Shown piece by piece: positions 1 through 37,839 of a DNA stretch of 64,000 nt. The stretch is from assembly GCF_050920415.1 (NCBI RefSeq), contig NZ_CP169309.1; one strand, given 5' to 3'. Origin of the DNA: Escherichia coli (GTDB lineage: Bacteria; Pseudomonadota; Gammaproteobacteria; Enterobacterales; Enterobacteriaceae). The notes under the pieces are model-generated. The model saw only the letters and a list, made by a program, of their open reading frames with translations, had not been told where the DNA came from and ran no database searches. Every line of letters starts with the position of its first letter. The first letter of the stretch is position 1. The position numbers and the translations under genes are program-made.

Positions 1-235
1 CAAAATATTCAATATTTATATATTTCAATGTCTATTCATTTTATATGTGAATATATCAACCAGCAGAATACCTGTGTTCTAATTATTTTTAAATATTTTG
101 AATGAATGCTTATTGTCTGATACACAAGAAATAACTCTCTTTTTATCGTTAAAAGATGATATTTCACTTTGCCCGCGCCGTGAAAGTCACTGATAATGCG
201 TTCGTTCGTAAATTCAAAATGGCGTAATCTAATAT

Positions 236-1735
236 ATGCTAAATTTATTTGTTGGCCTTGATATATACACAGGGCTTTTGTTATTACTTGCTCTGGCATT
301 TGTGTTGTTCTACGAAGCAATCAATGGTTTTCATGACACGGCGAATGCGGTGGCAACCGTTATTTATACTCGTGCCATGCAGCCACAGCTTGCCGTGGTG
401 ATGGCGGCATTTTTTAACTTTTTTGGCGTATTGCTAGGCGGACTTAGCGTTGCCTATGCCATTGTCCATATGTTGCCAACCGATTTGTTGCTGAATATGG
501 GGTCAACTCACGGCCTGGCGATGGTCTTTTCCATGCTGCTGGCGGCGATTATCTGGAACCTGGGAACGTGGTTCTTTGGTTTACCGGCCTCCAGTTCGCA
601 TACCTTGATTGGTGCGATTATCGGCATCGGTTTAACCAACGCGCTTTTAACCGGCTCATCGGTGATGGATGCGTTAAACCTGCGTGAAGTGACCAAAATT
701 TTCTCCTCGCTGATTGTTTCCCCTATCGTCGGCCTGGTCATTGCGGGAGGCCTGATATTCCTGCTGCGCCGCTACTGGAGCGGGACGAAAAAGCGTGACC
801 GTATTCACCGCATTCCGGAAGATCGCAAAAAGAAAAAAGGCAAACGTAAGCCACCATTCTGGACGCGTATTGCGCTGATTGTTTCCGCTGCGGGCGTGGC
901 GTTTTCGCACGGCGCGAACGACGGGCAGAAAGGGATCGGACTGGTGATGCTGGTACTGGTGGGGATTGCTCCTGCTGGTTTCGTCGTCAATATGAATGCG
1001 TCCGGCTATGAAATTACCCGTACCCGCGATGCCGTCACCAACTTTGAACACTATCTGCAACAGCATCCTGAACTGCCGCAGAAGTTGATTGCGATGGAAC
1101 CTCCATTGCCTGCGGCATCGACTGATGGCACGCAAGTAACGGAGTTTCATTGTCATCCGGCAAATACCTTTGATGCGATTGCGCGCGTTAAAACGATGTT
1201 GCCAGGTAATATGGAAAGCTACGAGCCGTTAAGCGTGAGTCAGCGCAGCCAGCTGCGCCGCATTATGCTGTGCATCTCTGATACCTCTGCGAAGCTGGCG
1301 AAACTGCCAGGCGTCAGTAAAGAAGATCAGAACCTGCTGAAAAAACTGCGCAGCGATATGTTAAGCACCATTGAGTACGCTCCGGTGTGGATCATCATGG
1401 CGGTAGCACTGGCGCTCGGCATTGGCACCATGATTGGCTGGCGTCGTGTAGCGATGACCATCGGTGAGAAGATTGGTAAGCGCGGCATGACGTATGCGCA
1501 AGGCATGGCGGCACAAATGACGGCGGCAGTGTCTATCGGCCTTGCCAGTTATATTGGGATGCCCGTCTCCACAACGCACGTCCTCTCGTCTGCGGTAGCA
1601 GGGACGATGGTGGTGGACGGCGGTGGGTTACAGCGTAAAACGGTAACCAGCATCCTGATGGCGTGGGTGTTTACTTTACCGGCGGCGATTTTTCTGTCTG
1701 GTGGGTTGTACTGGATAGCATTGCAGTTGATTTAA
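236..1735 (+). CDS. pitB: Low-affinity inorganic phosphate transporter, PiT family
   Basis: 499 aa ORF that aligns by eye along its length with E. coli PitA/PitB (N-terminus [26 protein letters not shown]-terminal [22 protein letters not shown]). It differs from PitA at many positions and sits next to yghT, so it is the pitB paralog. Confidence 0.9.
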
Positions 1736-1743
1736 CCTTCCTG

Positions 1744-1780
1744 AAAATGCCCGGTCCTGACGATCGGGCATTTCCATTTT
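1744..1780. terminator. Stem-loop between convergent pitB and yghT, likely bidirectional terminator
   Basis: Inverted repeat AAATGCCCG / CGGGCATTT with an 11 nt loop, followed by a T-rich run on the + strand, in the 48 bp gap between the two convergent stop codons. Confidence 0.5.
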
Positions 1781-1783
1781 TGA

Positions 1784-2476
1784 CTAGTGATAACCACACG
1801 CGGTCATAAAATCCGTAATCGCTTTTTCTGCATCAACCAGCACCTTTTCCAGTGGCTGATTGGCGTCGATATCAACCAGTTGTGCACCACCAAAGGTTAA
1901 CTGTGGCGTTATGGCAATCTTTCTCGCCAGCGATTCCCGTTTATGGTCGGGTTTACGCGCGCAGGCAACTTCAAGGTCAACATTGAGTTTGATAACCAGA
2001 TCAGGCTTATGGCTCGCCATCCAGTGAAATGCTTTACGTTCCTGGCTTGCCAGCCATGAGACAAACCGGCCGCCTTCAACGTTAGGTGGGAACACCGTAC
2101 CATCGTAAGCGCCAGGAATTTGGTCCTGAGGATAACGATCGGTTAAGACAATCAGCCCGCGACGACGACAGGCGAGCATATGACGAAAGCGTAACAGTCG
2201 GCGGGCGACGAAAGCGGTGATCACCAGGGCCGGAACCGGACCCGGCAATTTTTTTGCCGTTTTCACTTCATTTTTTTCAATAGTCTTGTGCAGAGACTTT
2301 CCCATCAACGGTAATTTTGTCACTGCACGACCGACATTTCCGGCCTGTTTTCCTAAATGAACTCTTTCGGCAGCACCATATTTTTCGACAACGGTAATAA
2401 GATGTTCACACACCGTTGACTTGCCTGAACCATCGCTACCAATAACGGCAATTAATGGAGGTGTTATTGACTGCAT
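1784..2476 (-). CDS. yghT: P-loop NTPase, kinase-like (Walker A plus DRY motif); paralog of YghS and YghR
   Basis: 230 aa. Walker [14 protein letters not shown], then LTDRYPQD and ARKPDH motifs shared with the next two genes. No ABC signature (LSGGQ). The fold call (thymidylate/nucleoside kinase-like) is by motif only. Confidence 0.8.
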
Positions 2477-2556
2477 GAATATATCCTTAAATTTAAATAT
2501 CCATCCAAAATATTTATTTGGTTAATATGTTTTTATGAAAGCGTAATTCAGGTCAA

Positions 2557-2581
2557 TGTCACAATTAACCATTGTCACAAT
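2557..2581. promoter_or_regulatory. Direct repeat TGTCACAAT x2 in the divergent yghT/yghS promoter region, candidate operator
   Basis: TGTCACAAT at 2557-2565 and again at 2573-2581, 16 bp apart centre to centre, inside the 173 bp AT-rich divergent intergenic region. Confidence 0.3.
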
Positions 2582-2649
2582 AAGGTTGAACGGATATTCT
2601 GAGCACGGACCACGTAATATTCAATACATTATTTGCTGCCGGGTTTTTC

Positions 2650-3363
2650 GTGAATCAACGTAATATGTCAATAATTAATTCCACGCCAGTGCGTGTTATT
2701 GCCATTGTAGGATGTGATGGTTCAGGTAAATCGACCCTCACGGCAAGCCTGGTAAATGAACTGGCAGCAACAATGCCAACAGAACACATTTATCTCGGGC
2801 AATCGTCCGGGCGAATTGGCGAATGGATTTCACAGCTCCCTGTTATTGGCGCACCTTTTGGGCGTTATCTGCGAAGTAAAGCGGCACATGTGCACGAAAA
2901 GCCCTCCACACCGCCTGGCAATATTACTGCGCTGGTTATCTATCTGCTTTCCTGCTGGCGGGCGTATAAGTTTCGCAAAATGTTGTGTAAAAGCCAGCAA
3001 GGCTATCTGCTCATCACCGACCGCTACCCGCAGGTTGAAGTGCCGGGTTTTCGCTTTGATGGCCCGCAACTGGCAAAAAACACGGGCGGTAACGGCTGGA
3101 TAAAAATGTTAAGACAGCGCGAGCTCAAACTTTACCAATGGATGGCGTCTTATTTGCCCGTATTGTTGATTCGTCTTGGCATTGATGAACAAACCGCGTT
3201 TGCGCGTAAACCTGACCACCAACTGGCGGCGTTACAGGAAAAAATCGCTGTTACGCCGCAACTGACATTCAATGGTGCAAAGATCCTTGAACTGGATGGT
3301 CGGCAACCCGCCGATGAAATTCTGCAAGCGTCACTACGCGCAATTCACGCCGCGCTTTCCTGA
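2650..3363 (+). CDS. yghS: P-loop NTPase, kinase-like; paralog of YghT and YghR
   Basis: 237 aa. Walker A IAIVGCDGSGKST, ITDRYPQ, ARKPDHQLAALQEKIAVTPQLTF; collinear with YghT. Confidence 0.8.
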   Translation: MNQRNMSIINSTPVRVIAIVGCDGSGKSTLTASLVNELAATMPTEHIYLGQSSGRIGEWISQLPVIGAPFGRYLRSKAAHVHEKPSTPPGNITALVIYLLSCWRAYKFRKMLCKSQQGYLLITDRYPQVEVPGFRFDGPQLAKNTGGNGWIKMLRQRELKLYQWMASYLPVLLIRLGIDEQTAFARKPDHQLAALQEKIAVTPQLTFNGAKILELDGRQPADEILQASLRAIHAALS

Positions 3364-3393
3364 TCACCAAATGGATAGGGGATGATTTAACGA

Positions 3394-4152
3394 ATGGATG
3401 CACTACAAACACAAACTGTTAATAGTACAACCGCGCCGCAGCCCAACTACATTCCGGGGCTGATTGCGGTGGTCGGGTGTGATGGCACCGGTAAATCCAC
3501 ACTGACCACTGACCTGGTGAAATCGCTGCAACAACACTGGCAAACCGAGCGCCGCTATCTGGGGCTGCTCTCCGGCGAAGACGGCGACAAAATCAAACGG
3601 TTGCCGCTCGTTGGCGTCTGGCTGGAACGGCGACTGGCGGCCAAATCCTCGAAAACCCAAAGCATGAAAACCAAATCTCCGGCGCTATGGGCGGCGGTGA
3701 TTATGTACTGCTTCTCGCTGCGAAGAATGGCGAATCTACGCAAGGTTCAGCGACTGGCGCAAAGTGGCGTTCTGGTGGTCAGCGATCGCTTCCCGCAGGC
3801 TGAAATTTCGGGCTTTTATTATGACGGACCGGGGATTGGCATCGAGCGTGCGACCGGGAAAATCAGCATGTTTCTGGCCCAGCGCGAACGGCGTTTATAC
3901 CAAAAAATGGCGCAATACCGTCCTGAATTAATTATTCGTTTGGGGATTGATATTGATACTGCCATCTCCCGCAAGCCTGACCATGACTATGCCGAGCTGC
4001 AGGACAAAATCGGTGTCATGTCGACGATTGGCTATAACGGCACAAAAATTCTTGAGATTGATTCCAGAGCGCCCTACAGCGAAGTGCTGGAACAGGCACA
4101 GAAGGCGGTTTCTCTGGTTGCAATCGTTTCTGACCGCCGAAGTTTAACTTAA
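3394..4152 (+). CDS. yghR: P-loop NTPase, kinase-like; paralog of YghT and YghS
   Basis: 252 aa. Walker A IAVVGCDGTGKST, VSDRFPQ, SRKPDHDYAELQDKIG; third copy of the same fold. Confidence 0.8.
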   Translation: MDALQTQTVNSTTAPQPNYIPGLIAVVGCDGTGKSTLTTDLVKSLQQHWQTERRYLGLLSGEDGDKIKRLPLVGVWLERRLAAKSSKTQSMKTKSPALWAAVIMYCFSLRRMANLRKVQRLAQSGVLVVSDRFPQAEISGFYYDGPGIGIERATGKISMFLAQRERRLYQKMAQYRPELIIRLGIDIDTAISRKPDHDYAELQDKIGVMSTIGYNGTKILEIDSRAPYSEVLEQAQKAVSLVAIVSDRRSLT

Positions 4153-4197
4153 GGTTGGCGGGATACTTTTTATTATCAACGATAAGGTCAGGCTGAA

Positions 4198-5547
4198 TTG
4201 GCGGGGTTTAACATCAAACATTGGTTTGCAGATGGCGCGTTTCGCACCATTATTCGCAATAGCGCCTGGTTAGGCTCCAGTAATGTCGTGAGCGCTTTGC
4301 TGGGTCTGTTGGCGCTCTCGTGTGCCGGTAAAGGGATGACGCCCGCCATGTTTGGCGTACTGGTGATTGTGCAATCGTACGCCAAGTCGATCAGCGATTT
4401 TATTAAGTTTCAGACATGGCAGCTGGTGGTTCAGTACGGAACGCCAGCCTTGACCAATAATAATCCGCAGCAATTTCGCAATGTCGTCTCATTTTCCTTC
4501 TCGTTGGATATCGTCAGCGGCGCGGTGGCGATTGTCGGCGGCATTGCCTTACTCCCTTTTCTTTCCCATTCATTAGGTCTGGATGACCAAAGCTTTTGGC
4601 TGGCAGCGCTGTATTGCACGCTCATTCCTTCAATGGCTTCCTCCACACCGACCGGCATTCTGCGTGCAGTAGATCGCTTCGATTTGATTGCTGTACAGCA
4701 GGCGACGAAACCTTTTCTGCGCGCAGCGGGGAGCGTCGTAGCCTGGTATTTTGATTTTGGTTTTGCGGGTTTTGTTATTGCCTGGTACGCATCGAATCTG
4801 GTTGGCGGCACCATGTACTGGTGGTTTGCCGCGCGCGAATTACGCCGCAGAAATATCCATAACGCCTTCAAATTGAATCTGTTTGAGTCTGCCCGACACA
4901 TTAAAGGCGCGTGGAGTTTTGTCTGGTCAACCAACATTGCCCACTCCATCTGGTCGGCACGTAACTCGTGCAGCACAGTGTTGGTGGGGATCGTGTTAGG
5001 ACCCGCTGCCGCCGGGTTATTTAAAATCGCCATGACATTCTTCGATGCCGCCGGAACGCCAGCGGGTTTACTGGGCAAAAGTTTTTACCCAGAGGTGATG
5101 CGTTTAGATCCGCGTACCACCAGACCGTGGTTGTTAGGCGTGAAGTCCGGTTTACTGGCGGGCGGAATCGGTATTCTGGTGGCGCTCGCGGTGTTGATCG
5201 TCGGCAAGCCGCTCATTTCGCTGGTGTTTGGCGTTAAGTATCTCGAAGCGTATGACCTGATTCAGGTGATGCTTGGCGCAATTGTGATTTCGATGCTGGG
5301 CTTCCCACAGGAGTCATTGCTATTGATGGCGGGAAAACAGCGCGCTTTTCTCGTGGCGCAAACCATCGCCTCAATCGGCTACATCGTATTGCTGTTCATG
5401 TTCTGTCATCTGTTTGGCGTGCTGGGGGCTGCATTTGCTTACTTCGGTGGGCAATGTCTGGATGTGGTGCTCTCGTTAATTCCAACCTTAAAGGCATTTT
5501 TTCAGCGCCATTCCTTGCTTTATAACGCAGCCGGAGAGAAATCCTGA
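4198..5547 (+). CDS. yghQ: Multi-pass inner-membrane protein, MOP/polysaccharide-biosynthesis (Wzx/MurJ-like) flippase family
   Basis: 449 aa, highly hydrophobic throughout with many predicted TM segments. The track start is a TTG; the true start may be the internal ATG at about 4333. The stop overlaps the next ORF's start (TGATG). Confidence 0.7.
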   Translation: MAGFNIKHWFADGAFRTIIRNSAWLGSSNVVSALLGLLALSCAGKGMTPAMFGVLVIVQSYAKSISDFIKFQTWQLVVQYGTPALTNNNPQQFRNVVSFSFSLDIVSGAVAIVGGIALLPFLSHSLGLDDQSFWLAALYCTLIPSMASSTPTGILRAVDRFDLIAVQQATKPFLRAAGSVVAWYFDFGFAGFVIAWYASNLVGGTMYWWFAARELRRRNIHNAFKLNLFESARHIKGAWSFVWSTNIAHSIWSARNSCSTVLVGIVLGPAAAGLFKIAMTFFDAAGTPAGLLGKSFYPEVMRLDPRTTRPWLLGVKSGLLAGGIGILVALAVLIVGKPLISLVFGVKYLEAYDLIQVMLGAIVISMLGFPQESLLLMAGKQRAFLVAQTIASIGYIVLLFMFCHLFGVLGAAFAYFGGQCLDVVLSLIPTLKAFFQRHSLLYNAAGEKS

Positions 5548-5993
5548 TGATGAGAAAATATTTCCCGCTTGAGGCGAGCGAGCGTCTATTTATTGCAGTT
5601 GAAGAAGATGATGTCGTTGATGCGCAGGTCAGTTTACCGCCGACTATCGCAACAGGTTGTACCACCGAAATCATTCATGATAATTACGCGTTATGCCTGC
5701 AATTCTGGCTGAATGGCGTTGATCGTCAGGAATTACTGCGTTTAATCCACAAACAAGCCAAAGGCGAGGGGCTTACGGCTGACGAGCGTAAACAGTTTAA
5801 ATATATGCGGGCGCGTTATAAGCATCTACGTTTTGCCCAACGGTTGTATTTAAAAAAGCATCAGGCCGGATTTTTATTTGGCAAAACGACCGTTTTTCTT
5901 GGACGTTTTCAGGACGGCTTTCGTAACGGTAAGAAAAATATTGTGTCGTTTTACGGCAACCTTTTACGGATTTATTTAAGCTCTCCGGTCTAG
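5547..5993 (+). CDS. Hypothetical protein, no recognisable motif
   Basis: 148 aa ORF whose ATG overlaps the yghQ stop (translational coupling), same strand as neighbours. Basic, soluble-looking. Confidence 0.5.
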   Translation: MMRKYFPLEASERLFIAVEEDDVVDAQVSLPPTIATGCTTEIIHDNYALCLQFWLNGVDRQELLRLIHKQAKGEGLTADERKQFKYMRARYKHLRFAQRLYLKKHQAGFLFGKTTVFLGRFQDGFRNGKKNIVSFYGNLLRIYLSSPV

Positions 5994-6371
5994 TTGTTGG
6001 TGAACTATTCATTACGCCATAGCCAGTTAGAAAGCGTAAGCGGTTTTATTGCCTATCGGCAAAAGCAAATGCACCTCCTGAAAGAGATTATTGCCAAACC
6101 ACGGCTAACTGGCAGGGAATTTCATGATGTACGAAAAATAATCAGCCAGCAGGTTTCTTATTACGACACCCTAAGATCGCTTGATCCTGAAAATAAAGAA
6201 GCGTTACAGATTTCCCGCTTCCTCGCCGCCATTAATGGCCTGATGGGGGATAAACACGACGACATGGTGGCGGATGATATGGAAAACCGCCAGTCGTATG
6301 ATGCACCGATGGCGCTGGATAGCGATATTCGTCAGCGCTTAGAACTGCTGATTTCGCGTTTTCCGCTATAA
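5994..6371 (+). CDS. Hypothetical protein, start uncertain
   Basis: 125 aa ORF immediately after the previous stop. The track start is TTG; the first in-frame ATG is at about 6069. No motif recognised. Confidence 0.35.
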   Translation: MLVNYSLRHSQLESVSGFIAYRQKQMHLLKEIIAKPRLTGREFHDVRKIISQQVSYYDTLRSLDPENKEALQISRFLAAINGLMGDKHDDMVADDMENRQSYDAPMALDSDIRQRLELLISRFPL

Positions 6372-6379
6372 CCGGAGCA

Positions 6380-6943
6380 ATGATGTCATCTCGTTTGATT
6401 ATTGCGCTGATTATCATGCTCTTAGCCCCGGGTGTGCAGGCGCACAATTTCGTCACTGGTAAAACGGTTACCCCTGTTTATATCCAGGAAGGCGGCGAGC
6501 TGCTTCTGAATAGCGACGACGAAATTCACTACCAAAAGTGGAACAGCACACAGCTGGCGGGAAAAGTCCGCATTATTCAGTATATCGCCGGGCGTAAGTC
6601 GGCGAAGAAAAAGAACTCACTGTTAATTAAAGCGGTTGAAGCGGCAAACTTTCCGCAGGATCGTTTTCAGCCCACCACCATTGTGAACACCGATGATGCC
6701 ATCTTTGGTACTGGCTATTTTGTCGTTGGCAAAATCGAAAAAAATAAACGCCGCTATCCGTGGGCGCAATTCGTTATTGACGGCAATGGACAGGGACGCG
6801 TTGTCTGGCGGTTGCCGGAGCAGAGTTCAACCATTCTGGTGCTGAATAAAGCCGGGCAAATTCAGTGGGCAAAGGACGGCAGCCTGACGCCGGAAGAGGT
6901 AGATCATGTCATTGCGCTGGCGCAGAAGCTGATCAATGAATAA
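6380..6943 (+). CDS. Secreted/periplasmic protein with cleavable signal peptide, function unknown
   Basis: 187 aa. N-terminus MMSSRLIIALIIMLLAPGVQA|HN is a typical Sec signal peptide. It lies directly upstream of the LptF/LptG-like pair. Any YtfJ-like or LptA/LptC-like assignment is unverified. Confidence 0.6.
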   Translation: MMSSRLIIALIIMLLAPGVQAHNFVTGKTVTPVYIQEGGELLLNSDDEIHYQKWNSTQLAGKVRIIQYIAGRKSAKKKNSLLIKAVEAANFPQDRFQPTTIVNTDDAIFGTGYFVVGKIEKNKRRYPWAQFVIDGNGQGRVVWRLPEQSSTILVLNKAGQIQWAKDGSLTPEEVDHVIALAQKLINE

Positions 6944-6973
6944 AAAACTCAAAGGATTGAGGGCGTTAGTGAG

Positions 6974-8044
6974 ATGAAGCTGGTTGAACACTACATCATG
7001 CGTGGTACGCGCCGTCTGGTGCTGATTATCGTCGGTTTTCTGATCTTTATTTTCGCCAGCTACTCCGCACAGCGTTATCTGACCGAAGCGGCAAATGGGA
7101 CATTAGCTCTTGATGTTGTGCTGGATATTGTTTTCTACAAGGTGCTGATTGCACTGGAGATGTTGTTACCTGTTGGACTGTATGTGTCAGTTGGCGTGAC
7201 GCTAGGGCAGATGTATACCGACTCGGAAATTACCGCTATTTCTGCGGCGGGGGGGAGTCCGGGACGCTTGTACAAAGCCGTTCTTTATCTGGCGATACCG
7301 CTAAGTATTTTTGTCACCCTTCTGTCGATGTATGGTCGTCCGTGGGCTTATGCGCAGATTTATCAACTGGAGCAACAGTCGCAGTCGGAGCTGGATGTTC
7401 GCCAGTTGCGGGCAAAGAAATTTAACACTAACGATAACGGACGAATGATCCTTTCGCAGACGGTTGATCAGGATAATAATCGCCTGACTGACGTGCTGAT
7501 TTATACTTCTACTGCCAATCGAACCCGTATTTTCCGCGCCCGTTCGGTTGATGTAGTTGACCCATCACCCGAGAAACCGACCGTTATGTTGCATAACGGG
7601 ACCGCCTATCTTCTCGATCATCAGGGGCGTGACGACAACGAACAGATCTACCGTAATCTGCAATTGCATCTGAATCCGCTGGATCAAAGCCCTAACGTCA
7701 AACGCAAAGCAAAATCGGTCACGGAGCTGGCGCGCTCCGCCTTTCCTGCCGATCATGCCGAACTGCAATGGCGACAAAGCCGTGGCCTGACAGCATTGTT
7801 GATGGCGCTGCTGGCCATTTCATTAAGTCGGGTAAAACCGCGGCAAGGGCGATTTTCAACGTTATTGCCACTGACGTTGCTGTTTGTTGCCATTTTTTAT
7901 GGCGGCGACGTCTGCCGTACGCTGGTGGCTAACGGCGCGATTCCCCTCATTCCTGGTTTGTGGTTAGTACCCGGACTCATGCTAATGGGCCTGCTGATGC
8001 TGGTCGCACGCGACTTCTCTTTGCTGCAGAAATTTTCCCGATGA
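6974..8044 (+). CDS. LptF/LptG-family (YjgP/YjgQ) permease, paralog 1
   Basis: 356 aa. N-terminal TM helix, then a large periplasmic domain and C-terminal TM bundle, matching the LptF/LptG topology. Stop overlaps the next start (ATGA). Confidence 0.8.
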   Translation: MKLVEHYIMRGTRRLVLIIVGFLIFIFASYSAQRYLTEAANGTLALDVVLDIVFYKVLIALEMLLPVGLYVSVGVTLGQMYTDSEITAISAAGGSPGRLYKAVLYLAIPLSIFVTLLSMYGRPWAYAQIYQLEQQSQSELDVRQLRAKKFNTNDNGRMILSQTVDQDNNRLTDVLIYTSTANRTRIFRARSVDVVDPSPEKPTVMLHNGTAYLLDHQGRDDNEQIYRNLQLHLNPLDQSPNVKRKAKSVTELARSAFPADHAELQWRQSRGLTALLMALLAISLSRVKPRQGRFSTLLPLTLLFVAIFYGGDVCRTLVANGAIPLIPGLWLVPGLMLMGLLMLVARDFSLLQKFSR

Positions 8045-9120
8045 ATGTTTTCAGTCGCTATTTAATTCGTCATCTCTTTCTCGGTTTTGCCGCCGCCGCA
8101 GGGCTATTGCTGCCGCTCTTTACCACCTTCAACCTGATTAACGAACTGGATGATGTCAGCCCGGGTGGTTATCGCTGGACTCAGGCGGTGCTGGTGGTGC
8201 TGATGACCTTACCGCGCACACTGGTCGAACTTTCGCCGTTTATCGCCTTATTGGGAGGGATTGTCGGCCTGGGGCAGTTATCGAAAAACAGTGAGCTTAC
8301 CGCCATTCGCAGCACGGGGTTTTCTATCTTCCGTATTGCACTGGTGGCGCTGGTTGCCGGGATATTGTGGACTGTTTCATTAGGCACGATAGATGAGTGG
8401 GTGGCGTCGCCATTGCAGCAACAGGCGCTGCAAATCAAATCGACTGCCACTGCGTTGGGGGAGGACGATGACATTACCGGCAATATGCTGTGGGCCAGGC
8501 GTGGTAATGAATTTGTGACGGTGAAATCGCTGAACGAGCAGGGCCAGCCGGTGGGCGTGGAGATATTTCATTACCGCGACGATCTCTCGCTCGAATCCTA
8601 CATTTATGCACGCAGTGCCACCATTGAAGACGACAAAACGTGGATCCTGCATGGTGTGAATCATAAAAAATGGCTGAATGGCAAAGAAACGCTGGAAACA
8701 TCTGATAATCTTGCCTGGCAATCGGCCTTCACCAGTATGAATCTTGAAGAGTTATCGATGCCGGGAAATACTTTTTCTGTCCGTCAACTTAATCATTACA
8801 TCCATTATTTGCAGGAAACCGGGCAACCCAGCAGCGAATACCGCTTTGCACTGTGGGAAAAACTGGGACAACCCATCTTGACCCTTGCGATGATTTTGCT
8901 GGCTGTGCCGTTTACCTTTAGTGCCCCGCGTTCGCCTGGGATGGGTAGCCGTCTCGCTGTAGGCGTCATCGTGGGGTTACTCACCTGGAGCAGCTATCAA
9001 ATCATGGTCAATCTGGGATTGCTATTTGCGTTGAGCGCACCTGTTACCGCGCTCGGTTTACCGATAGCGTTTATGCTGGTGGCGTTGAGCCTGGTGTATT
9101 GGTATGACAGTCAACATTAA
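8041..9120 (+). CDS. LptF/LptG-family (YjgP/YjgQ) permease, paralog 2
   Basis: Start taken at the ATG at 8041 (MNVFSRYLIRHLFLGF...), not the longer track ORF from 7960. LGQLSKNSELTAIRSTGFS parallels LptG LGMLAQRSELVVMQASGFT. Periplasmic middle domain and C-terminal TMs. Confidence 0.8.
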   Translation: MNVFSRYLIRHLFLGFAAAAGLLLPLFTTFNLINELDDVSPGGYRWTQAVLVVLMTLPRTLVELSPFIALLGGIVGLGQLSKNSELTAIRSTGFSIFRIALVALVAGILWTVSLGTIDEWVASPLQQQALQIKSTATALGEDDDITGNMLWARRGNEFVTVKSLNEQGQPVGVEIFHYRDDLSLESYIYARSATIEDDKTWILHGVNHKKWLNGKETLETSDNLAWQSAFTSMNLEELSMPGNTFSVRQLNHYIHYLQETGQPSSEYRFALWEKLGQPILTLAMILLAVPFTFSAPRSPGMGSRLAVGVIVGLLTWSSYQIMVNLGLLFALSAPVTALGLPIAFMLVALSLVYWYDSQH

Positions 9121-9121
9121 A

Positions 9122-9148
9122 CCCGCCGTGGCGCAGCACCACAGCGGG
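9122..9148. terminator. Imperfect hairpin at the convergent junction of the two opposing operons
   Basis: CCCGCCGTGG ... CCACAGCGGG with one mismatch, in the 34 bp between the permease stop (9120) and the synthase stop (9155-9157). Confidence 0.3.
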
Positions 9149-9154
9149 CTCACA

Positions 9155-10327
9155 TTACTGCTTCAGAGTAGCAAATGCCTGAATGATGGCATCGATTTGC
9201 TCACGAGTGTGGGCAGCGTTTACGCTACAGCGCAGCAGCGTGATGCCTGCAGGCGCGGCAGGTGGCAGGATAAGATTCACATAAACGCCCAGCGAAATAA
9301 GCTCGCGCCAGATGCGTAAACCTTCCTCTTTCGAACCGATTATTACTGGCACTACCGGGCTAATATGTGAACTTAACTCGTAACCCAGTTTTTGCAGACC
9401 GTCATACAGATGGCTGGCGTTATCCATCAGCTTTTGCCGCAACTCTGGTTGTGAGGCAATGGTTCTTAACGACGAGCGCACGGTCGCAATGCAGGACGGA
9501 GAAGGAGAGGCGGTAAAAATATACGGGCGGCTGCCGTAGCGCAGCACTTCCATCGCTTCCGAACCGACAGCAAAACCGCCAATCGAGGCCAGACTTTTAC
9601 TGAAAGTACCAACGATAATATCCACATCATCTTCAACGCCAACGGCTTCAGCCAGTCCGCGCCCCGTTGCGCCTAACACGCCAAACGAATGCGCTTCATC
9701 GACAATCAAATAACCACCGAGACGACGTTTGATATCAACAATTTCCGCCAGCGGCGCAACGTCACCGAGCATACTGTAGATGCCTTCAACGATGATAATC
9801 GCCTCTTTTGCCCGTTCACCGAGGCGAACCATGCGCCGTTCCAGATCTTTAGCATCGTTATGGCGGAAACGAATAATTTCCGCTCCACCGAGAGAACAGG
9901 CGTCATAAATACTGGCGTGGCTATCGGCATCCAGTAACACCACGGCGTTATGGTCGGCAAGTGCGCTGATGACACCTAAATTAGCGGTATAACCGGTTGA
10001 AAAAACGATAGCGGTAGGGCGATTGAAAAACTCGGCAATCTCTTTCTCTAACGCCAGATGTGGCGCATAGCTGCCATTAGCCATACGAGAACCGGTAGTG
10101 CCGGTGCCTTGTGCCGCTAATGCTGCCTGACCTTCGGTGATGGCATCATGATTGAAAGTTAAACCGAGATAATTATTAGTCCCGGCCAGAATCACTTTTT
10201 TATTGCCGATACGGCCTTCAGTGGCGGAGTACACTTCATCAATACAGGTACCAAACGGCGTTAATCCGTTGTCACTAAATTGCAGTCGCTCGCCAGCAAG
10301 GCGCGCATATTTATCGTATAGCCCCAT
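9155..10327 (-). CDS. PLP-dependent alpha-oxoamine synthase (serine palmitoyltransferase / KBL / BioF family)
   Basis: 390 aa. Motifs DEAHSFGVLGATGRG and GTFSKSLASIGGF (PLP lysine) are hallmarks of alpha-oxoamine synthases. Start overlaps the ACP stop by 1 nt. Confidence 0.85.
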   Translation of the reverse strand: MGLYDKYARLAGERLQFSDNGLTPFGTCIDEVYSATEGRIGNKKVILAGTNNYLGLTFNHDAITEGQAALAAQGTGTTGSRMANGSYAPHLALEKEIAEFFNRPTAIVFSTGYTANLGVISALADHNAVVLLDADSHASIYDACSLGGAEIIRFRHNDAKDLERRMVRLGERAKEAIIIVEGIYSMLGDVAPLAEIVDIKRRLGGYLIVDEAHSFGVLGATGRGLAEAVGVEDDVDIIVGTFSKSLASIGGFAVGSEAMEVLRYGSRPYIFTASPSPSCIATVRSSLRTIASQPELRQKLMDNASHLYDGLQKLGYELSSHISPVVPVIIGSKEEGLRIWRELISLGVYVNLILPPAAPAGITLLRCSVNAAHTREQIDAIIQAFATLKQ

Positions 10328-10575
10328 TATTTATTCTCCAGCCATGGAAGTAGAGTTTCCATTAATTGCGCAGGGGTTTTGACATCCAGCAGAATATTAA
10401 TAGGAATGGAAATATCGAATCTGTCTTCCAGCATCATTAAGAGATCCATCACTTTGATCGACTCCAGGCCAAGATCGTTGACGAGATCGCTGTCGGGCTT
10501 AATTTCCACACCGTTTTCGACCAAATCCTGTAAACAGGAAAGGATGTAATCCATTACTATTTCACGATTTACCAT
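10327..10575 (-). CDS. Acyl carrier protein (phosphopantetheine-binding)
   Basis: 82 aa acidic protein. DLGLESIKVMDL is a candidate 4'-phosphopantetheine attachment site. Lies between the synthase and the reductase. Confidence 0.75.
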   Translation of the reverse strand: MVNREIVMDYILSCLQDLVENGVEIKPDSDLVNDLGLESIKVMDLLMMLEDRFDISIPINILLDVKTPAQLMETLLPWLENK

Positions 10576-10606
10576 AGAAACGTTAACACACCTTTAAACA
10601 AGACAA

Positions 10607-11521
10607 TCAAAATAGCCCGCTGCGTAATGCGTGTTCCAGGCTAATCCCGGGAAACCAATTAATATCTTCAGAAATACGGTTATTACTTGCTGACCAGTCG
10701 GCGTGGGTTAATTCACGGATTTTCGAGCGGGTCAGCATAGGTTCTTTACCTGCCAGGCGACTCAACGCGGTACTGATATCCGCAAGGCAGGTGAGTACCG
10801 ACAGAGGAATACCAACCATTCGAACGGAACCGCAACGGGCGTCGGCGGCAAGTTGCTGTACGCGTTGCCAGTCATAGCCGCCGGCGACGCCATCGCATAA
10901 TTCATAGGTTTGCGTTTGTACAGTTTCGGCGCTTAACCACTGCCCCACGGCTTGCGCGAAATCGGTGACGTGCAGGAAAGAGAGCTGTGTATCTGGCGCA
11001 CCAAGTCGTGGCAGCAGGCCGCGCAGCATCCAGCCAAACAGCGGTTTTAACTCTTTATCGCCGGGACCATACACGGCTGTCGGGCGAAAAATGCCCAGCG
11101 TAATTTCGTCAGCCATTGCGGTCAGTCGTTGTTCGGCGACGTGTTTGGAATTTGCGTACCAGGAGAGTTCGGGATGGCGCGCCGCCAGCGAAGAGATAAA
11201 CAGAAAACGTTGGCAAAAGCCGCTCTCTTTTGCCGCTTGCATCAGGCGCAGGCTGCCGTCAACGTTACAGCGGGTAAAAATCTCTTCTTTGTGTCCGCGC
11301 ACTTGCCCGGCGCAATGGACCACCGCGCTGGCTCCGGCAACCAGTTCGCTAAGCGAATGTGTATCTTCCAGCGAACCGCGCACCCAGATGAGATTATCAT
11401 TGACGTGAGCGCGGGCAGTACGCGTCAATGCGCGAACGTGAAAGCCGCGGGCGAGCAGGTTATCGATAATATATTTACCGATAAACCCGGTAGCGCCCGT
11501 CACCGCGACAGTTTGATTCAT
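10607..11521 (-). CDS. NAD(P)-dependent epimerase/dehydratase-family reductase (extended SDR)
   Basis: 304 aa. N-terminal Rossmann motif VAVTGATGFIG and catalytic YANSK (YxxxK). Start overlaps the ligase stop (ATGA). Confidence 0.8.
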   Translation of the reverse strand: MNQTVAVTGATGFIGKYIIDNLLARGFHVRALTRTARAHVNDNLIWVRGSLEDTHSLSELVAGASAVVHCAGQVRGHKEEIFTRCNVDGSLRLMQAAKESGFCQRFLFISSLAARHPELSWYANSKHVAEQRLTAMADEITLGIFRPTAVYGPGDKELKPLFGWMLRGLLPRLGAPDTQLSFLHVTDFAQAVGQWLSAETVQTQTYELCDGVAGGYDWQRVQQLAADARCGSVRMVGIPLSVLTCLADISTALSRLAGKEPMLTRSKIRELTHADWSASNNRISEDINWFPGISLEHALRSGLF

Positions 11522-13236
11522 GCCATGGATTCCTGCACATGAAGGCTTGCAGCATAACGTTTTTTCGCTTCCGCACGGGCAGGCTTGCCGGAGGACGTTC
11601 GGGGAATACTGTGGGGCGGCAACAGATCGATAGCCGCTGTTACGCCAAATTCGCTTTGGATCCGTGCTGCCAGTGCGTGGATAAGCTGCCCACGACGTTC
11701 TTCGTCGCTGATCCTACACTGGATCTGCAAAATGATTTTTTCCTGGGCGGTAACAAAAGCAATCGCATCGCCAGAATGAATTTCCGGTTCCTGTTCCGCA
11801 ATATATTCAATATCCTGCGGCCAGATATTACGGCCACGAATAATAATCAGATCTTTAATGCGCCCGGTGACATACAGATAACCATCCAGCAGATAACCGA
11901 GGTCGCCGGTATCTAACCAGCCCGTCGCGGCAATCTCGTCTTGCGAAACCTGGTCGCCAAAGTAACCGCTCATCAGGCTGGGGCCGGAGATGCAAATATG
12001 GCCTACCACACGTTCCGCGACCGGCATACCTGCTTCATTGCGGATTTCAATGCCATGTTCCGGCAACGCTTTACCGCAGTTGACGAAAGTCGATACGGCG
12101 CGTGTTTCAGCACCCGGCGCGACGGCTTTGCCCTGATATTCAAGGATGTCGCGATCCACTTCGTTAACCACAACCCCGGAGGCTTCATCAGAGAAGCTGA
12201 CAGCCAGCGCATTTTCTGCCAGTCCGTAGCACGGCATGAAAGTTTTATCGTCAAAGTTAACCTGACGGAAACATTCAGCAAATTGGTGGAGTTGTTCTGC
12301 GGAGATGGGTTCTGCGCCAATACCAGCGACGCGCCAGCACGAGAGATCCAGTTCAGCGAGATCTTTTTCATTCACGCGGCGCTGACACAATTCATAGCCA
12401 AACGGCGGCGCGACGGAAACTGTGCCACGATTTTTACTGATCAATTTAAGCCATTGCAGCGGACGCATGGCAAAATCCTGAGTGCGCAAATAATCTACTG
12501 AGAGCTGCGTGGCGACGGGGGTCAGGAGAAAGCCGACCAGTCCCATATCATGGTAGAAAGGCAGCCAGGAGACGCAGCGGTCGCCAGGGCGTAATTTAAT
12601 GCCATCGTGGCTTATAGCACGTAGATTAGCCATCACTTCGCGATGGGTGATAATGACGCCACGGGGAAAACGGGTGCTGCCGGAGGTGTACTGGAGGTAG
12701 GCGATATCGTTCGGAACTGGACGCTGGAGTACAACATCGGCTTCCGGTAATGCCTTAAACCAGGCGTGGCTTAAAACATGTAATTCGGGGTTGTTATGCG
12801 TAGCAGCATTGACCAGTGGCAACCACTCATCACCAGTGATAATGGCTGCGGGCTGGCAACTAGCCAGTAAACCTTGCAGTTTAGCGCTCCAGGAATCCCG
12901 CTGACCGACGCCCATTGGAATCGCTAACGGGACGGCGACTAAGCCGGCATACTGGCAGGCAAAAAAAGCCTCTACAAACCCGCTACTCGTTTCGGCAATC
13001 AGCGCCACGCGATCGCCTTTTTTCAGATTTAGTGATAACAACCGCTTCGCACCAGCTTCGGCACACGCTTTTAACGTCTGATATTCCAGTTGATCTTCAA
13101 GTTGGCAACGTCTGTCATAAAAATTCATTCCGGCGCTACTCAGAGCGGCGTAGTCCAAAGCATCAACCAGCGTTGGAAAATCGGCATAGCGCATAGGTAG
13201 GGAATGCGTAAAGATGTTATTAGACATATACACCAC
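11518..13236 (-). CDS. Fatty-acyl-AMP ligase / acyl-ACP synthetase (adenylate-forming enzyme)
   Basis: 572 aa. AMP-binding motifs YTSGSTRFPRGV, DTGDLGY and GRIKDLIIIRGRNIWPQDIE. The exact start (Met1, Met4 or Met15) is uncertain. Confidence 0.85.
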   Translation of the reverse strand: MVYMSNNIFTHSLPMRYADFPTLVDALDYAALSSAGMNFYDRRCQLEDQLEYQTLKACAEAGAKRLLSLNLKKGDRVALIAETSSGFVEAFFACQYAGLVAVPLAIPMGVGQRDSWSAKLQGLLASCQPAAIITGDEWLPLVNAATHNNPELHVLSHAWFKALPEADVVLQRPVPNDIAYLQYTSGSTRFPRGVIITHREVMANLRAISHDGIKLRPGDRCVSWLPFYHDMGLVGFLLTPVATQLSVDYLRTQDFAMRPLQWLKLISKNRGTVSVAPPFGYELCQRRVNEKDLAELDLSCWRVAGIGAEPISAEQLHQFAECFRQVNFDDKTFMPCYGLAENALAVSFSDEASGVVVNEVDRDILEYQGKAVAPGAETRAVSTFVNCGKALPEHGIEIRNEAGMPVAERVVGHICISGPSLMSGYFGDQVSQDEIAATGWLDTGDLGYLLDGYLYVTGRIKDLIIIRGRNIWPQDIEYIAEQEPEIHSGDAIAFVTAQEKIILQIQCRISDEERRGQLIHALAARIQSEFGVTAAIDLLPPHSIPRTSSGKPARAEAKKRYAASLHVQESMA

Positions 13237-13598
13237 GAAAAAAATTGGATATCAGAAATAAAATGACAATAATGCGGTGGATTATATAGGCATAAAAGAT
13301 AAATGAGATAGTATTTTCATCGGTGCGATATTGAACATTGATTTAAATAATAGGTTTGGCTTTGTTGTTTTTATTGTGAATTATATTTAATTTATGAATA
13401 TATTAAGAAGAAGCCTTGTTTGGTTGCCTTAAATCGACAAAAGGCATTGAGGCGCTTCTGTGTAGTCTCTGACCTTATCTTAATTATTAATAAATACTAT
13501 TTATTCTTTGTTTGTATTCTTTGGGTTGATTATTAAGATGCCGTTCGTTGCTGTTGCAATCTGTTTGTCACCGTTAATTATTTGTTATCCACAGAGAT
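13237..13598. promoter_or_regulatory. AT-rich divergent promoter region between the ligase operon and yghO
   Basis: 362 bp non-coding stretch with long A/T tracts (for example TTTAAATAATAGG, TTATATTTAATTTATGAATATATTAAG). No ORF. Candidate nucleoid-protein (H-NS-like) silenced promoter. Confidence 0.4.
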
Positions 13599-14741
13599 AT
13601 GGAATGCGATCTGCTGATGATTAAAATTGAAAAAGTAATTAATAAAAATGACCTTAAGGCATTTATCGCTTTTCCGTCATCACTTTATCCCGATGATCCA
13701 AACTGGATACCCCCTTTGTTCATTGAACGCAGCGAGCATTTGTCGGCGAAGAATCCGGGGACGGACCATATTATCTGGCAGGCGTGGGTAGCAAAAAAAG
13801 CGGGGCAGATAGTCGGGCGGATTACCGCGCAAATCGATACCTTGCACCGCGAGCGTTACGGTGACGATACCGGTCATTTCGGCATGATTGACGCCATTGA
13901 TGATCCGCAGGTTTTTGCCGCGTTGTTTGGCGCAGCGGAAGCGTGGTTGAAGTCACAAGGTGCAAGTAAGATCAGCGGGCCTTTCAGCCTGAATATCAAT
14001 CAGGAAAGCGGATTACTGATTGAAGGTTTCGACACTCCGCCCTGTGCGATGATGCCGCACGGTAAACCGTGGTATGCCGCGCATATTGAACAATTGGGTT
14101 ATCACAAAGGTATTGATTTACTGGCGTGGTGGATGCAACGAACCGATCTCACTTTCTCTCCGGCGCTAAAAAAACTGATGGATCAGGTGCGCAAAAAGGT
14201 GACCATTCGCTGCATCAAGCGCCAGCGGTTTGCCGAAGAGATGCTGATCCTGCGTGAGATTTTCAACTCTGGCTGGCAGCACAACTGGGGATTTGTGCCG
14301 TTTACCGAACATGAATTCGCTACCATGGGCGATCAACTAAAGTATCTGGTACCGGACGATATGATCTACGTCGCCGAGATTGATTCTGCTCCCTGCGCGT
14401 TTATAGTCGGCTTGCCGAACATCAACGAGGCGATTGCCGATCTGAACGGAGCGCTCTTTCCCTTCGGCTGGGCAAAATTGCTGTGGCGCTTAAAAGTCAG
14501 CGGTGTGCGAACTGCGCGAGTGCCGCTGATGGGCGTGCGTGACGAGTATCAGTTCAGCCGCATCGGCCCGGTGATTGCGCTGTTATTGATTGAAGCCTTA
14601 CGCGATCCGTTTGCTCGCCGGAAGATCGATGCGCTGGAAATGTCATGGATCCTCGAAACCAATACAGGCATGAATAACATGCTGGAACGCATTGGAGCGG
14701 AGCCGTACAAGCGTTACCGATTGTATGAAAAGCAGATTTGA
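13599..14741 (+). CDS. yghO: YghO-family protein, probably acyl-CoA N-acyltransferase fold (GNAT-like)
   Basis: 380 aa intact ORF. I recognise the name from its position next to glcC. The GNAT-like assignment is from memory of annotations, not from a motif I can point to. Confidence 0.65.
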   Translation: MECDLLMIKIEKVINKNDLKAFIAFPSSLYPDDPNWIPPLFIERSEHLSAKNPGTDHIIWQAWVAKKAGQIVGRITAQIDTLHRERYGDDTGHFGMIDAIDDPQVFAALFGAAEAWLKSQGASKISGPFSLNINQESGLLIEGFDTPPCAMMPHGKPWYAAHIEQLGYHKGIDLLAWWMQRTDLTFSPALKKLMDQVRKKVTIRCIKRQRFAEEMLILREIFNSGWQHNWGFVPFTEHEFATMGDQLKYLVPDDMIYVAEIDSAPCAFIVGLPNINEAIADLNGALFPFGWAKLLWRLKVSGVRTARVPLMGVRDEYQFSRIGPVIALLLIEALRDPFARRKIDALEMSWILETNTGMNNMLERIGAEPYKRYRLYEKQI

Positions 14742-14747
14742 TGGCAG

Positions 14748-15512
14748 TCACCCCTGCTTCATCTCCAGCGGCACCGCCGAGCGAATCAAATGGTGGCCTT
14801 CCAGCTCGATATCGTGGAGATTCTTTTTCACGGTCCGCACATGATCGCGTGCTGCGCGCTGGGCGACGTGTGGCAGCCGCTGCAACACCGCGTTGTAGAT
14901 CCGCGCATGCTGGCGATCGATCTGCTTTTTTTGCTGTGGTCGATGGTAGAGATTATTTACGCTGGCAAACACTGAATTAAACATCAGGTCGGTCAATGAT
15001 TGCAGTGTAAACACCAGCACCTGATTGTGGGAAGCCTGACAAATGGCGAGATGGAAAGCGTGATCCAGTTGTGCATGTTCGATCAGCGAAATCTCTTTGT
15101 TGTTCTCACTGGCGGCGAGCATTTTTTCATAACAGCGGGTTATCACAACAAAATCAGCCTGGGTTCCCAGCGTTGCCGCCAGCCTTGCCGATTCGCCCTC
15201 CAGCAATGCGCGAACGTCGAGCAGATCGTACAGCGTTCGCGGCTGCGTACTGAACAGATGGATCAGCGGGCTGGTGTCCTGCACCCGATTGAGCCGTGCG
15301 ACACGAGAATCGCGCCCCTGCGCCGTTTCAATAATCCCACGCCCGCGCAGCACGGTCAGCCCTTCACGCAGTGCGGAGCGTGAGAAGCCGAGCTTTTCAC
15401 ACAGTCGACGTTCCGAGGGAAGCGGCTGACCGACCTTCAGCACGCCGTCGATAATTAACCGTTCGATACTCTCTGCAACCACTTCGCAAATAGGGCGACG
15501 TTCATCTTTCAT
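14748..15512 (-). CDS. glcC: GntR/FadR-family transcriptional activator of the glc operon
   Basis: Start placed at the internal Met (MKDERRPICEVVAESIERLIIDGVLKVGQPLPSERRL...), giving 254 aa. N-terminal winged-HTH, C-terminal FCD domain. Divergent from glcD. Confidence 0.9.
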   Translation of the reverse strand: MKDERRPICEVVAESIERLIIDGVLKVGQPLPSERRLCEKLGFSRSALREGLTVLRGRGIIETAQGRDSRVARLNRVQDTSPLIHLFSTQPRTLYDLLDVRALLEGESARLAATLGTQADFVVITRCYEKMLAASENNKEISLIEHAQLDHAFHLAICQASHNQVLVFTLQSLTDLMFNSVFASVNNLYHRPQQKKQIDRQHARIYNAVLQRLPHVAQRAARDHVRTVKKNLHDIELEGHHLIRSAVPLEMKQG

Positions 15513-15762
15513 TCCCGGACCTCGTGCACAGGTAGGACCAATTTTTCTGTTCTTGATTCGCAAAACACGCACATCACGTAAGTGATTATGTTACATCAAT
15601 TTAACATTAGTTTAACCAAAGAAAGGTCACAGAGCTGGAAAAAAAATGGTCTGACCGGTAGCTAAAGAGATAGACGAAAACGAAAAGCCCGCTTAATAAC
15701 TGTTCACAGAAGCAGCGCGCAAAAATCAGCTGCCACACAACACAACAAAGCGAAGCCTACTC
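15513..15762. promoter_or_regulatory. Divergent glcC / glcD promoter-operator region
   Basis: 250 bp intergenic region between divergently oriented glcC and glcD. Individual sites were not resolved. Confidence 0.5.
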
Positions 15763-31626: not shown

Positions 31627-31655
31627 CCGCATTTAATCCAGGAGAATCATTCATC

Positions 31656-36432: not shown

Positions 36433-36448
36433 TTTACGGAGTTATCAC

Positions 36449-36904
36449 ATGAATTCGTTATCCCGCACACAAGAACCACGGGCAGGTTTTACCCTGCTGG
36501 AAGTGATGGTGGTGATTGTTATTCTTGGCGTCCTGGCAAGTCTGGTGGTGCCTAACCTTTTGGGCAACAAAGAGAAAGCAGATCGGCAAAAAGCCATCAG
36601 CGATATCGTGGCGCTGGAGAACGCGCTGGATATGTATCGACTGGATAACGGGCGTTATCCGACCACCGAACAGGGGCTTGAGGCGCTGATCCAGCAACCG
36701 GCCAATATGGCGGACTCCCGCAACTACCGTCCTGGTGGATACATCAAACGGCTGCCAAAGGATCCGTGGGGCAATGATTATCAGTATCTCAGCCCGGGTG
36801 AAAAAGGACTGTTTGATGTTTACACCTTAGGGGCGGATGGTCAGGAAAACGGGGAAGGTGCTGGCGCAGATATCGGTAACTGGAATTTGCAGGAGTTTCA
36901 GTAA
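36449..36904 (+). CDS. gspG: T2SS major pseudopilin GspG
   Basis: Start at the ATG at 36449 (RBS GGAG). Prepilin leader and cleavage site ...RAGFTLLEVMVVIVILGVLASLVVPN. Confidence 0.9.
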   Translation: MNSLSRTQEPRAGFTLLEVMVVIVILGVLASLVVPNLLGNKEKADRQKAISDIVALENALDMYRLDNGRYPTTEQGLEALIQQPANMADSRNYRPGGYIKRLPKDPWGNDYQYLSPGEKGLFDVYTLGADGQENGEGAGADIGNWNLQEFQ

Positions 36905-36907
36905 TCA

Positions 36908-37471: not shown

Positions 37472-37839
37472 AGCGCGGATTTACCTTGCTGGAAGTGATG
37501 ATCGCACTGGCGATTTTTGCGCTGGCTGCCACGGCGGTGTTACAGATTGCCAGCGGTGCGCTGAGTAATCAGCAAATCCTTGAGGAAAAAACGGTAGCGG
37601 GCTGGGTAGCTGAAAACCAGACCGCACTGCTCTACCTGATGACCCGTGAACAACGAGCGGTCAGGCACCAGGGCGAGAGTGATATGGCTGGAAGCCGCTG
37701 GTACTGGCGAACCACACCGCTGAATACCGGTAACGCGCTGCTCCAGGCGGTGGATATTGAAGTCAGTCTTCATGAAGACTTTTCGTCGGTGATTCAGTCA
37801 CGACGCGCCTGGTTTAGCGCCGTGGGAGGCCAACAGTGA
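37468..37839 (+). CDS. gspI: T2SS minor pseudopilin GspI
   Basis: MKRGFTLLEVMIALAIF prepilin motif. ATGA overlap with gspH. Confidence 0.85.
   Translation: MKRGFTLLEVMIALAIFALAATAVLQIASGALSNQQILEEKTVAGWVAENQTALLYLMTREQRAVRHQGESDMAGSRWYWRTTPLNTGNALLQAVDIEVSLHEDFSSVIQSRRAWFSAVGGQQ

Follow-up and report, generated by a model that had tools for sequence, protein, structure and literature searches.

A probable thirteen-gene sphingolipid locus between pitB and glcC of Escherichia coli and its IS5-associated loss from K-12

The genes for the first steps of sphingolipid synthesis have been described in Escherichia coli BL21(DE3), where Padilla-Gomez et al. (2022; PMC9386255) assigned ECD_02851 as aasR, ECD_02852 as epi, ECD_02853 as acpR, ECD_02854 as spt and yghO (ECD_02850) as aca, and reported that AcpR carries 4'-phosphopantetheine, that co-expression of E. 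coli AasR, AcpR and Spt yields 3-oxosphinganine, and that yghO and epi are orthologs of CC_1154 and CC_1164 of Caulobacter. A Caulobacter locus with LptC2, LptF2, LptG2 and a flippase candidate was described by Olea-Ozuna et al. (2024; PMC11324152), the Caulobacter ceramide kinase CpgB is diacylglycerol kinase (DAGK)-like, and the Caulobacter LptF2 and LptG2 proteins assemble into a complex that binds LptB (Uchendu, Isom and Klein, bioRxiv 10.64898/2026.04.12.717747), in a report that also draws the sphingolipid operons of E. coli UTI89. Here we analyzed a 64,000-nucleotide stretch of E. coli contig NZ_CP169309.1 (assembly GCF_050920415.1; the window), in which the interval between pitB and glcC, at positions 1784-14741, holds a block of 13 genes: yghT, yghS, yghR, yghQ, a gene for a CHAD-like protein, a ytfJ-like gene, lptF2, lptG2, spt, acpR, cerR/epi, aasR and yghO. 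The block is very probably the form that the proteobacterial sphingolipid locus takes in Escherichia, with 13 genes that together would synthesize a ceramide-based lipid and carry it to the outer membrane. It was in place at the pitB-glcC site before the split from E. albertii, and K-12 has lost eight of its genes in an event associated with the insertion sequence (IS) IS5. An earlier reading made from the letters alone (the sequence-only reading) had called the locus uncharacterised, a description that is outdated; because the locus has already been published as the E. coli sphingolipid locus (PMC9386255; 10.64898/2026.04.12.717747), the finding itself is not new.

Spt, the serine palmitoyltransferase encoded at 9155-10327 on the minus strand, scored 599.6 bits against the Spt equivalog model NF047599 (cutoff 500) and stayed below the cutoffs of the BioF (335 vs 426 bits) and Kbl (298 vs 460 bits) models; it carries the TFSK motif of the pyridoxal phosphate-binding lysine, and its gene is already named spt by NCBI, with only "aminotransferase class I/II" given in some strains. 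Abutting spt immediately upstream is acpR (10327-10575, minus strand), whose product matches acyl carrier protein models and represents a specialised member of that family. The next gene, epi/cerR (10607-11521, minus strand), encodes an NAD-dependent reductase with epimerase and short-chain dehydrogenase/reductase-family matches, and aasR (11518-13227, same strand) encodes a fatty acyl-AMP ligase (PRK09192, 871 bits) for loading AcpR. An Spt above its model cutoff, with a dedicated carrier protein gene beside it and aasR nearby, corresponds to the AcpR-dependent (Rhodobacteria-type) form of the enzyme. Spt, AcpR and AasR are 98.7%, 100% and 97.4% identical to the respective BL21 proteins, and the five proteins described for BL21 (those of yghO, aasR, epi, acpR and spt) are 95-100% identical to those of the window. 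Relative to a Caulobacteraceae spt cluster, identities are 54% for Spt, 43% for AasR, 42% over 375 aa for YghO and 34% for Epi. YghO, encoded on the plus strand at 13599-14741, is a candidate bacterial ceramide synthase (bCerS) or N-acyltransferase, and both its identity level and the published orthology place it with CC_1154. The divergent region between aasR and yghO (13228-13598) is AT-rich, with a GC fraction of 0.41 in the 1 kb interval 13001-14000, and presumably holds promoters.

A second set of genes suggests export of the product. YghQ (4198-5547, plus strand) is a candidate flippase of the MOP/Wzx type, with a weak match to a MOP flippase model, PF01943 in its E. albertii ortholog, and 33% identity to the product of the gene that directly precedes the aasR homologue of the Caulobacteraceae cluster. 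The overlapping genes lptF2 (6974-8044) and lptG2 (8041-9120), both on the plus strand, encode paralogs of the LptF and LptG permeases that scored 323 bits against TIGR04407 (cutoff 230) and 304 bits against TIGR04408 (cutoff 240), respectively; PF03739 in their E. albertii orthologs likewise places them in the LptF/LptG family. The YtfJ-family protein (6383-6943, plus strand; TIGR01626, 209 bits vs cutoff 151) is apparently periplasmic, as its N-terminus, MSSRLIIALIIMLLAPGVQA, reads by eye as a signal peptide. Among the products of the locus there is no ATPase matching an ABC-transporter domain.

The remaining four genes are speculative candidates for head-group formation. Three of them, yghT (1784-2476, minus strand; retained in K-12), yghS (2650-3363, plus strand) and yghR (3394-4152, plus strand), encode P-loop paralogs that are 34-43% identical to each other (YghT to YghS and YghR, 34-37%) and have an invariant GxDGxGK P-loop in addition to DRxP and RKxDH motifs. 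An AlphaFold2 model of YghR (mean predicted local distance difference test score 81) gave thymidylate kinases as best Foldseek matches, with TM scores of 0.5-0.7 and 14-20% identity. Their assignment as thymidylate kinases was rejected, the three proteins reaching only 25-31 bits (YghT, 25.7 bits) against deoxythymidine monophosphate kinase models with cutoffs of 83 and 193, so that the likeness is at the level of the fold only. The fourth gene (5547-6371, plus strand) encodes an all-helical, CHAD-like protein of 274 aa for which no Pfam match was obtained. Searches of the Protein Data Bank (PDB) with the YghR and YtfJ-like sequences gave nothing significant, and tblastn with YghR/S/T, the CHAD-like and YtfJ-like proteins and LptF2/LptG2 against one Caulobacteraceae locus gave no convincing match. 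A defence-system reading was also rejected, as PADLOC models run on seven of the proteins produced one sub-threshold match confined to a P-loop. A Pseudomonas version of the cluster does encode a DAGK-like kinase; it also has two YghRST-like proteins, a CptA-like transferase and an ABC exporter resembling MsbA.

Based on these assignments, AasR would load a fatty acid onto AcpR and Spt would condense the acyl-AcpR with serine to 3-oxosphinganine, two steps demonstrated with BL21 proteins that are 97-100% identical to those of the window. By orthology with Caulobacter, YghO (bCerS/CC_1154) would then add the N-acyl chain and Epi/CerR (CC_1164) would reduce the 3-keto group, giving a dihydroceramide. 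Family membership and the Caulobacter experiments suggest that YghQ, as a MOP-type flippase, may move the lipid across the inner membrane and that LptF2/LptG2 may borrow the housekeeping ATPase LptB to extract it toward the outer membrane, with the putatively periplasmic YtfJ-like protein as an accessory; speculatively, a phosphorylated head group could be made or processed by YghR/S/T and the CHAD-like protein. Purifying selection keeps the module, yet it is repeatedly lost through IS-linked deletions.

The same gene set is annotated in a food isolate (NZ_CP169399) that differs from the window by one base over 17.5 kb. Its annotation starts with gss and pitB, followed by yghT (minus strand) and yghS; yghR is entered as a P-loop protein of 252 aa, yghQ as a "lipopolysaccharide biosynthesis protein" of 449 aa and the CHAD-like gene as a hypothetical protein of 274 aa, after which come a YtfJ-family protein, lptF and lptG. 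Next, on the minus strand, are the spt, acyl carrier protein, NAD-dependent epimerase/dehydratase and fatty acyl-AMP ligase genes, and the series ends with yghO, glcC (minus strand) and glcD. The single difference, A at position 5992 in the window and G in NZ_CP169399, converts TGG to TAG at 5991-5993 and divides the CHAD-like gene of the window into open reading frames of 148 and 125 aa. Because of this stop codon the sequence-only reading had put the number of genes between yghQ and yghO at nine, against eight in the annotation by the NCBI Prokaryotic Genome Annotation Pipeline (PGAP); the reading was right in describing yghO as intact (380 aa, ATG start) and yghQ as a full-length gene of 449 codons. 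Over window 1-24000, block and flanks alike, divergence of the window strain from BL21, K-12, O104:H4 and EC958 is 3-6%, and the strain appears to belong to a rarely sequenced lineage, only four of 5,426 complete E. coli genomes being at least 99% identical to it.

Upstream of the block, the phosphate transporter gene pitB (236-1735, plus strand) is followed by a terminator hairpin at 1745-1773, the sole standout in a terminator scan; overall, the promoter and terminator scans gave no more sites than shuffled sequence, and a search of window 1-16500 with Rfam returned nothing above the gathering scores. A 38-nt imperfect inverted repeat (2415-2452/2698-2735) spans the divergent yghT-yghS region, and its arms lie within the 5' (N-terminal) coding ends, over the P-loop stretches, which identifies it as something other than a regulatory element.

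Between pitB and glcC, K-12 MG1655 has only yghT, yghS, yghR, a yghQ that is truncated and annotated as lacking its C-terminus, one IS5 and yghO, which is the content that the sequence-only reading gave for K-12. BLAST alignment shows that K-12 matches the window through 5265/5266 and resumes at 13639, with one IS5 in place of the missing 8,373 bp (5266-13638). At the left junction K-12 reads GACCTGATTTAG followed by GGAAGGTGCG, the IS5 end, where the intact allele reads GACCTGATTCAGGTGATG in five strains; at the right junction it reads CGCACCTTCC followed by TTAATAAAAATG. The 4-mers bordering the IS5, TTAG and TTAA, are not a target duplication, the left one being one base off the TCAG of the intact allele. 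Thus, because one IS5 bordered by unlike 4-mers takes the place of 8,373 bp present in the five intact strains, the K-12 state is a deletion, neither an empty site nor a simple IS5 insertion. It may have arisen by recombination between two IS5 copies or as an adjacent deletion by one copy. Eight genes were removed whole (the CHAD-like and ytfJ-like genes, lptF2, lptG2, spt, acpR, epi and aasR), together with the 3' end of yghQ, of which codons 1-355 remain, and the 5' end of yghO; the latter is still an open reading frame in K-12, but its promoter and first 13 codons are lost and its annotated start lies inside the IS5. The proposal that K-12 is a natural knockout of the locus is thereby borne out, with BL21(DE3) carrying all 13 genes in identical order and YghR/S/T proteins identical to those of K-12. 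Elsewhere in the window, K-12 lacks a second segment of ~8 kb (31630-39625), which by position corresponds to the central part of the type II secretion (gsp beta) cluster; in K-12, gspC is joined to a gspL fragment.

Distribution was counted over the 5,426 complete E. coli genomes mentioned above, among which K-12 and O157 strains are strongly over-represented. At least 80% of the core deleted in K-12 is present in 4,063 genomes, a figure that refers to this core and not to genomes with all 13 genes intact, and at least 80% of window 1-16500 is present in 4,039. Carriers include EC958 (sequence type 131, ST131), NC101, O104:H4, O103:H2 and BL21(DE3). Because of the over-sampling of K-12 and O157, the natural carriage rate is probably above 75%. 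The block had been termed accessory, which is overstated for a block carried by ~75% of complete genomes. A record classified as a plasmid also contains one match to the block.

Absence of the block reflects repeated IS-linked losses. The yghQ::IS5 junction of K-12 occurs in 347 genomes, and four examples among the matches listed are of K-12 size (~4.6 Mb), one of them labelled as laboratory-developed. The truncation of O157-like strains occurs in 296 genomes: an IS3-family element interrupts pitB at window position 1471, and behind it comes an island with nleB, nleE and efa1-like genes; 267 records match pitA only and have no pitB. In the clinical strain GN03551 an IS1A deletion extends from yghS to spt, and in the clinical strain TUM9757, which has a different IS1A-bounded deletion, an IS1A lies after the start of the CHAD-like gene. 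An IS3 insertion is found in the locus of O121:H19, and in EC958 yghO is annotated as frameshifted (20348-21491 of the EC958 segment) in an otherwise complete locus.

Several lines of evidence indicate that the block is old at this site. The same synteny is found in phylogroup B1 and B2 strains (O104:H4 and EC958), in E. whittamii and two further Escherichia species, where a Spt scan placed the cluster between pitB and glcC, and in E. albertii CP030783, which a look-up of the 274-aa protein showed to have the order hyb-yghU-gss-pitB-(13 genes)-glcC-glcD, identical throughout. Synonymous divergence (dS) from other E. coli is 0.05-0.34 in the block and 0.07-0.30 in the flanking pitB, glcC and glcD genes; sliding nucleotide identity between the window strain and four E. 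coli lineages is 93-98% in block and flanks alike, and to E. albertii it is 82-87% in the block and in pitB. Because site and gene order are the same and both dS and identity track the flanks, the data support a block that has resided at pitB-glcC since before the E. coli/E. albertii split. Composition shows no GC anomaly (GC, 50.0% in the block and 51.9% in the whole window; third-position GC (GC3), 0.45-0.60 and 0.58-0.62 in the flanks), and the hallmarks of a genomic island were not found: the annotation shows no integrase or transposase in the block, the nearest tRNA gene (pheV) is 26 kb away at 41275, and a repeat search for island boundaries gave chance-level pairs only. The earlier suggestion of an ancestral block, free of integrase, transposase and flanking direct repeats and lost in K-12, agrees with these results and with the anatomy of the K-12 junctions. 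In window 14001-16000, covering the 3' end of yghO and glcC, identity to E. albertii CP030783 is 97%, compared with ~96% to E. coli strains; the excess at glcC over the 82-87% of the adjacent block suggests recombination between the species at glcC.

All 13 genes are under purifying selection, with pairwise ratios of nonsynonymous to synonymous divergence (dN/dS) of 0.02-0.19 across E. coli, other Escherichia and other genera. The full set of 13 is found together not only in Escherichia but also in about ten further genera of Enterobacterales, among them Citrobacter, Pseudocitrobacter, Hafnia, Pluralibacter, Serratia, Sodalis, Mangrovibacter, Pantoea and Rosenbergiella, with the order sometimes rearranged. 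PitB is part of this picture in that its gene adjoins yghT in Citrobacter, Pseudocitrobacter and Hafnia and lies beside the cluster in Pluralibacter, so that the module may be a 14-gene unit whose common thread is phosphate, seen in PitB, the three proteins of kinase fold and the CHAD-like protein. Beyond pitB and the block the flanks have nothing in common between genera, and on a deeper timescale the module has therefore undergone horizontal transfer or reshuffling within Enterobacterales. Serratia sp. M24T3 has a second, separate spt-acpR pair in addition to a full 13-gene cluster.

A number of observations weigh against the sphingolipid assignment. By domain matches in the E. albertii block, the locus is without LptC2, LptB and a DAGK-type ceramide kinase, and for this reason the head group and the transport partners proposed above are guesses. 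Epi of E. coli has no obvious signal peptide, its N-terminus starting directly at the Rossmann motif GATGFIG, whereas its Caulobacter counterpart CerR is reported to be periplasmic; YghO had no Pfam match, either as a single sequence or as a 19-sequence alignment, and no PDB match by sequence or profile. Empty-vector BL21(DE3), in which the native locus is present, had neither 3-oxosphinganine nor SPT activity (PMC9386255), and we found no published detection of a sphingolipid in E. coli. Inactivated copies of the locus are frequent among natural strains. Lastly, the Spt scan of other species used peptide patterns and one genome per species, so that absences in it are not proof of absence.

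The strongest rival explanation holds that the locus is a silent, decaying relic in E. coli that makes no lipid under any natural condition. The lack of product and activity in empty-vector BL21 is consistent with it, as is the series of independent inactivations (the K-12 IS5, the O157-type deletion, the IS1 deletions, the IS3 insertion, the EC958 yghO frameshift and the nonsense codon of the window). However, the dN/dS values in 13 of 13 genes, across E. coli, Escherichia and other genera, are not expected of a relic, the gene set has stayed together through rearrangements in about ten genera, and ~75% of complete genomes retain at least 80% of the core deleted in K-12. A relic is therefore improbable in our view, and because of the empty-vector result we propose that the locus is silent or very weakly expressed in laboratory culture.

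It is considerably less likely that the locus serves export of lipopolysaccharide (LPS) or another polysaccharide and that Spt is a BioF/Kbl-type enzyme of some other pathway. The PGAP names ("lipopolysaccharide biosynthesis protein," LptF and LptG), the LptF and LptG cutoffs passed, the resemblance of YghQ to Wzx-type flippases and the generic aminotransferase name of Spt in some NCBI records could all be read in this way. Nevertheless, Spt passes its own equivalog cutoff and fails those of BioF and Kbl, the BL21 Spt, AcpR and AasR proteins make 3-oxosphinganine, the locus is without a glycosyltransferase or sugar-nucleotide gene, and LptF2/LptG2 paralogs are tied to sphingolipid transport in Caulobacter. 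Finally, a recent genomic island in non-K-12 strains, with K-12 as the ancestral state, would fit the ~25% of complete genomes without the core, the unrelated contexts of a module that must have moved at some time among Enterobacterales genera, the best score of Spt being against a beta-proteobacterial Spt model and a GC3 slightly below that of the flanks, but for E. coli it is already refuted by K-12 junctions in which IS5 with unlike flanks joins a truncated yghQ to an N-terminally cut yghO and by the synteny of E. albertii, and it is further contradicted by the intact BL21 locus with YghR/S/T identical to K-12, by the same insertion site in E. whittamii and in B1 and B2 strains, by dS and nucleotide identity that match the flanks, and by the failure to find integrase, tRNA or repeats at the block.

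Returning to the sphingolipid locus, we offer a more tentative proposal, possible but rather unlikely, that most natural E. coli, but not K-12, can make a so far undetected anionic, phosphorylated sphingolipid outside laboratory conditions, whose head group would be formed by YghR/S/T and the CHAD-like protein as a phosphate- or polyphosphate-binding protein, with PitB possibly supplying phosphate and with export by YghQ and LptB-powered LptF2/LptG2, its chemistry being unlike that of the Caulobacter ceramide phosphoglycerate (CPG). The membrane lipid biology of E. coli rests largely on K-12, which is without eight of these genes, so that what textbooks say about the lipids of E. coli may fail to apply to natural isolates. 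Studies in K-12, such as work on chlorhexidine adaptation, treat the remnants of yghQ and yghO as ordinary genes. BL21(DE3) and UTI89 are tractable carriers of the locus, and K-12 is a ready null background for its reconstitution.

Among known systems, the K-12 deletion resembles wbbL::IS5 of the same strain in that an IS5 copy inactivates a cell-envelope pathway, both copies being among the 11 listed for BW25113. The wbbL insertion is a simple one and abolishes O-antigen; the IS5 between yghQ and yghO differs from it in its unlike flanks and the 8.4 kb that are missing. LptF2 and LptG2 resemble the corresponding subunits of the LPS extractor LptB2FG, passing the LptF and LptG equivalog cutoffs, but are second copies in a lipid-synthesis cluster that is without LptB, LptC and LptA. 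The housekeeping lptFG pair is located at another place in the chromosome, and we infer that the substrate of LptF2/LptG2 is a sphingolipid rather than LPS. With the Caulobacter crescentus locus CC_1152-CC_1168 (ccna_01212-01226) the block shares the five ceramide genes (aasR, cerR/epi, acpR, spt and cerS/yghO), a flippase candidate, CC_1166, that matches YghQ, and a second LptF/LptG pair without an LptB of its own. Unlike that locus, it is without LptC2, the DAGK-like CpgB (CC_1160) and the other CPG head-group genes, and has instead the three thymidylate-kinase-fold paralogs, the CHAD-like protein and the YtfJ-family protein, for which no homolog was detectable in the Caulobacteraceae locus examined. 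ECD_02850-02854 of BL21(DE3) and the "sphingolipid operons" of UTI89 are the same chromosomal locus as the block, with identical gene order in BL21, and the copy in the window differs by the nonsense codon in its CHAD-like gene. The 2022 work deals with five genes and presents them as characteristic of E. coli B and the enterotoxigenic strain B7A (PMC9386255), whereas the locus as seen here is a 13-gene unit that ~75% of complete E. coli genomes carry and that is also present in E. albertii.

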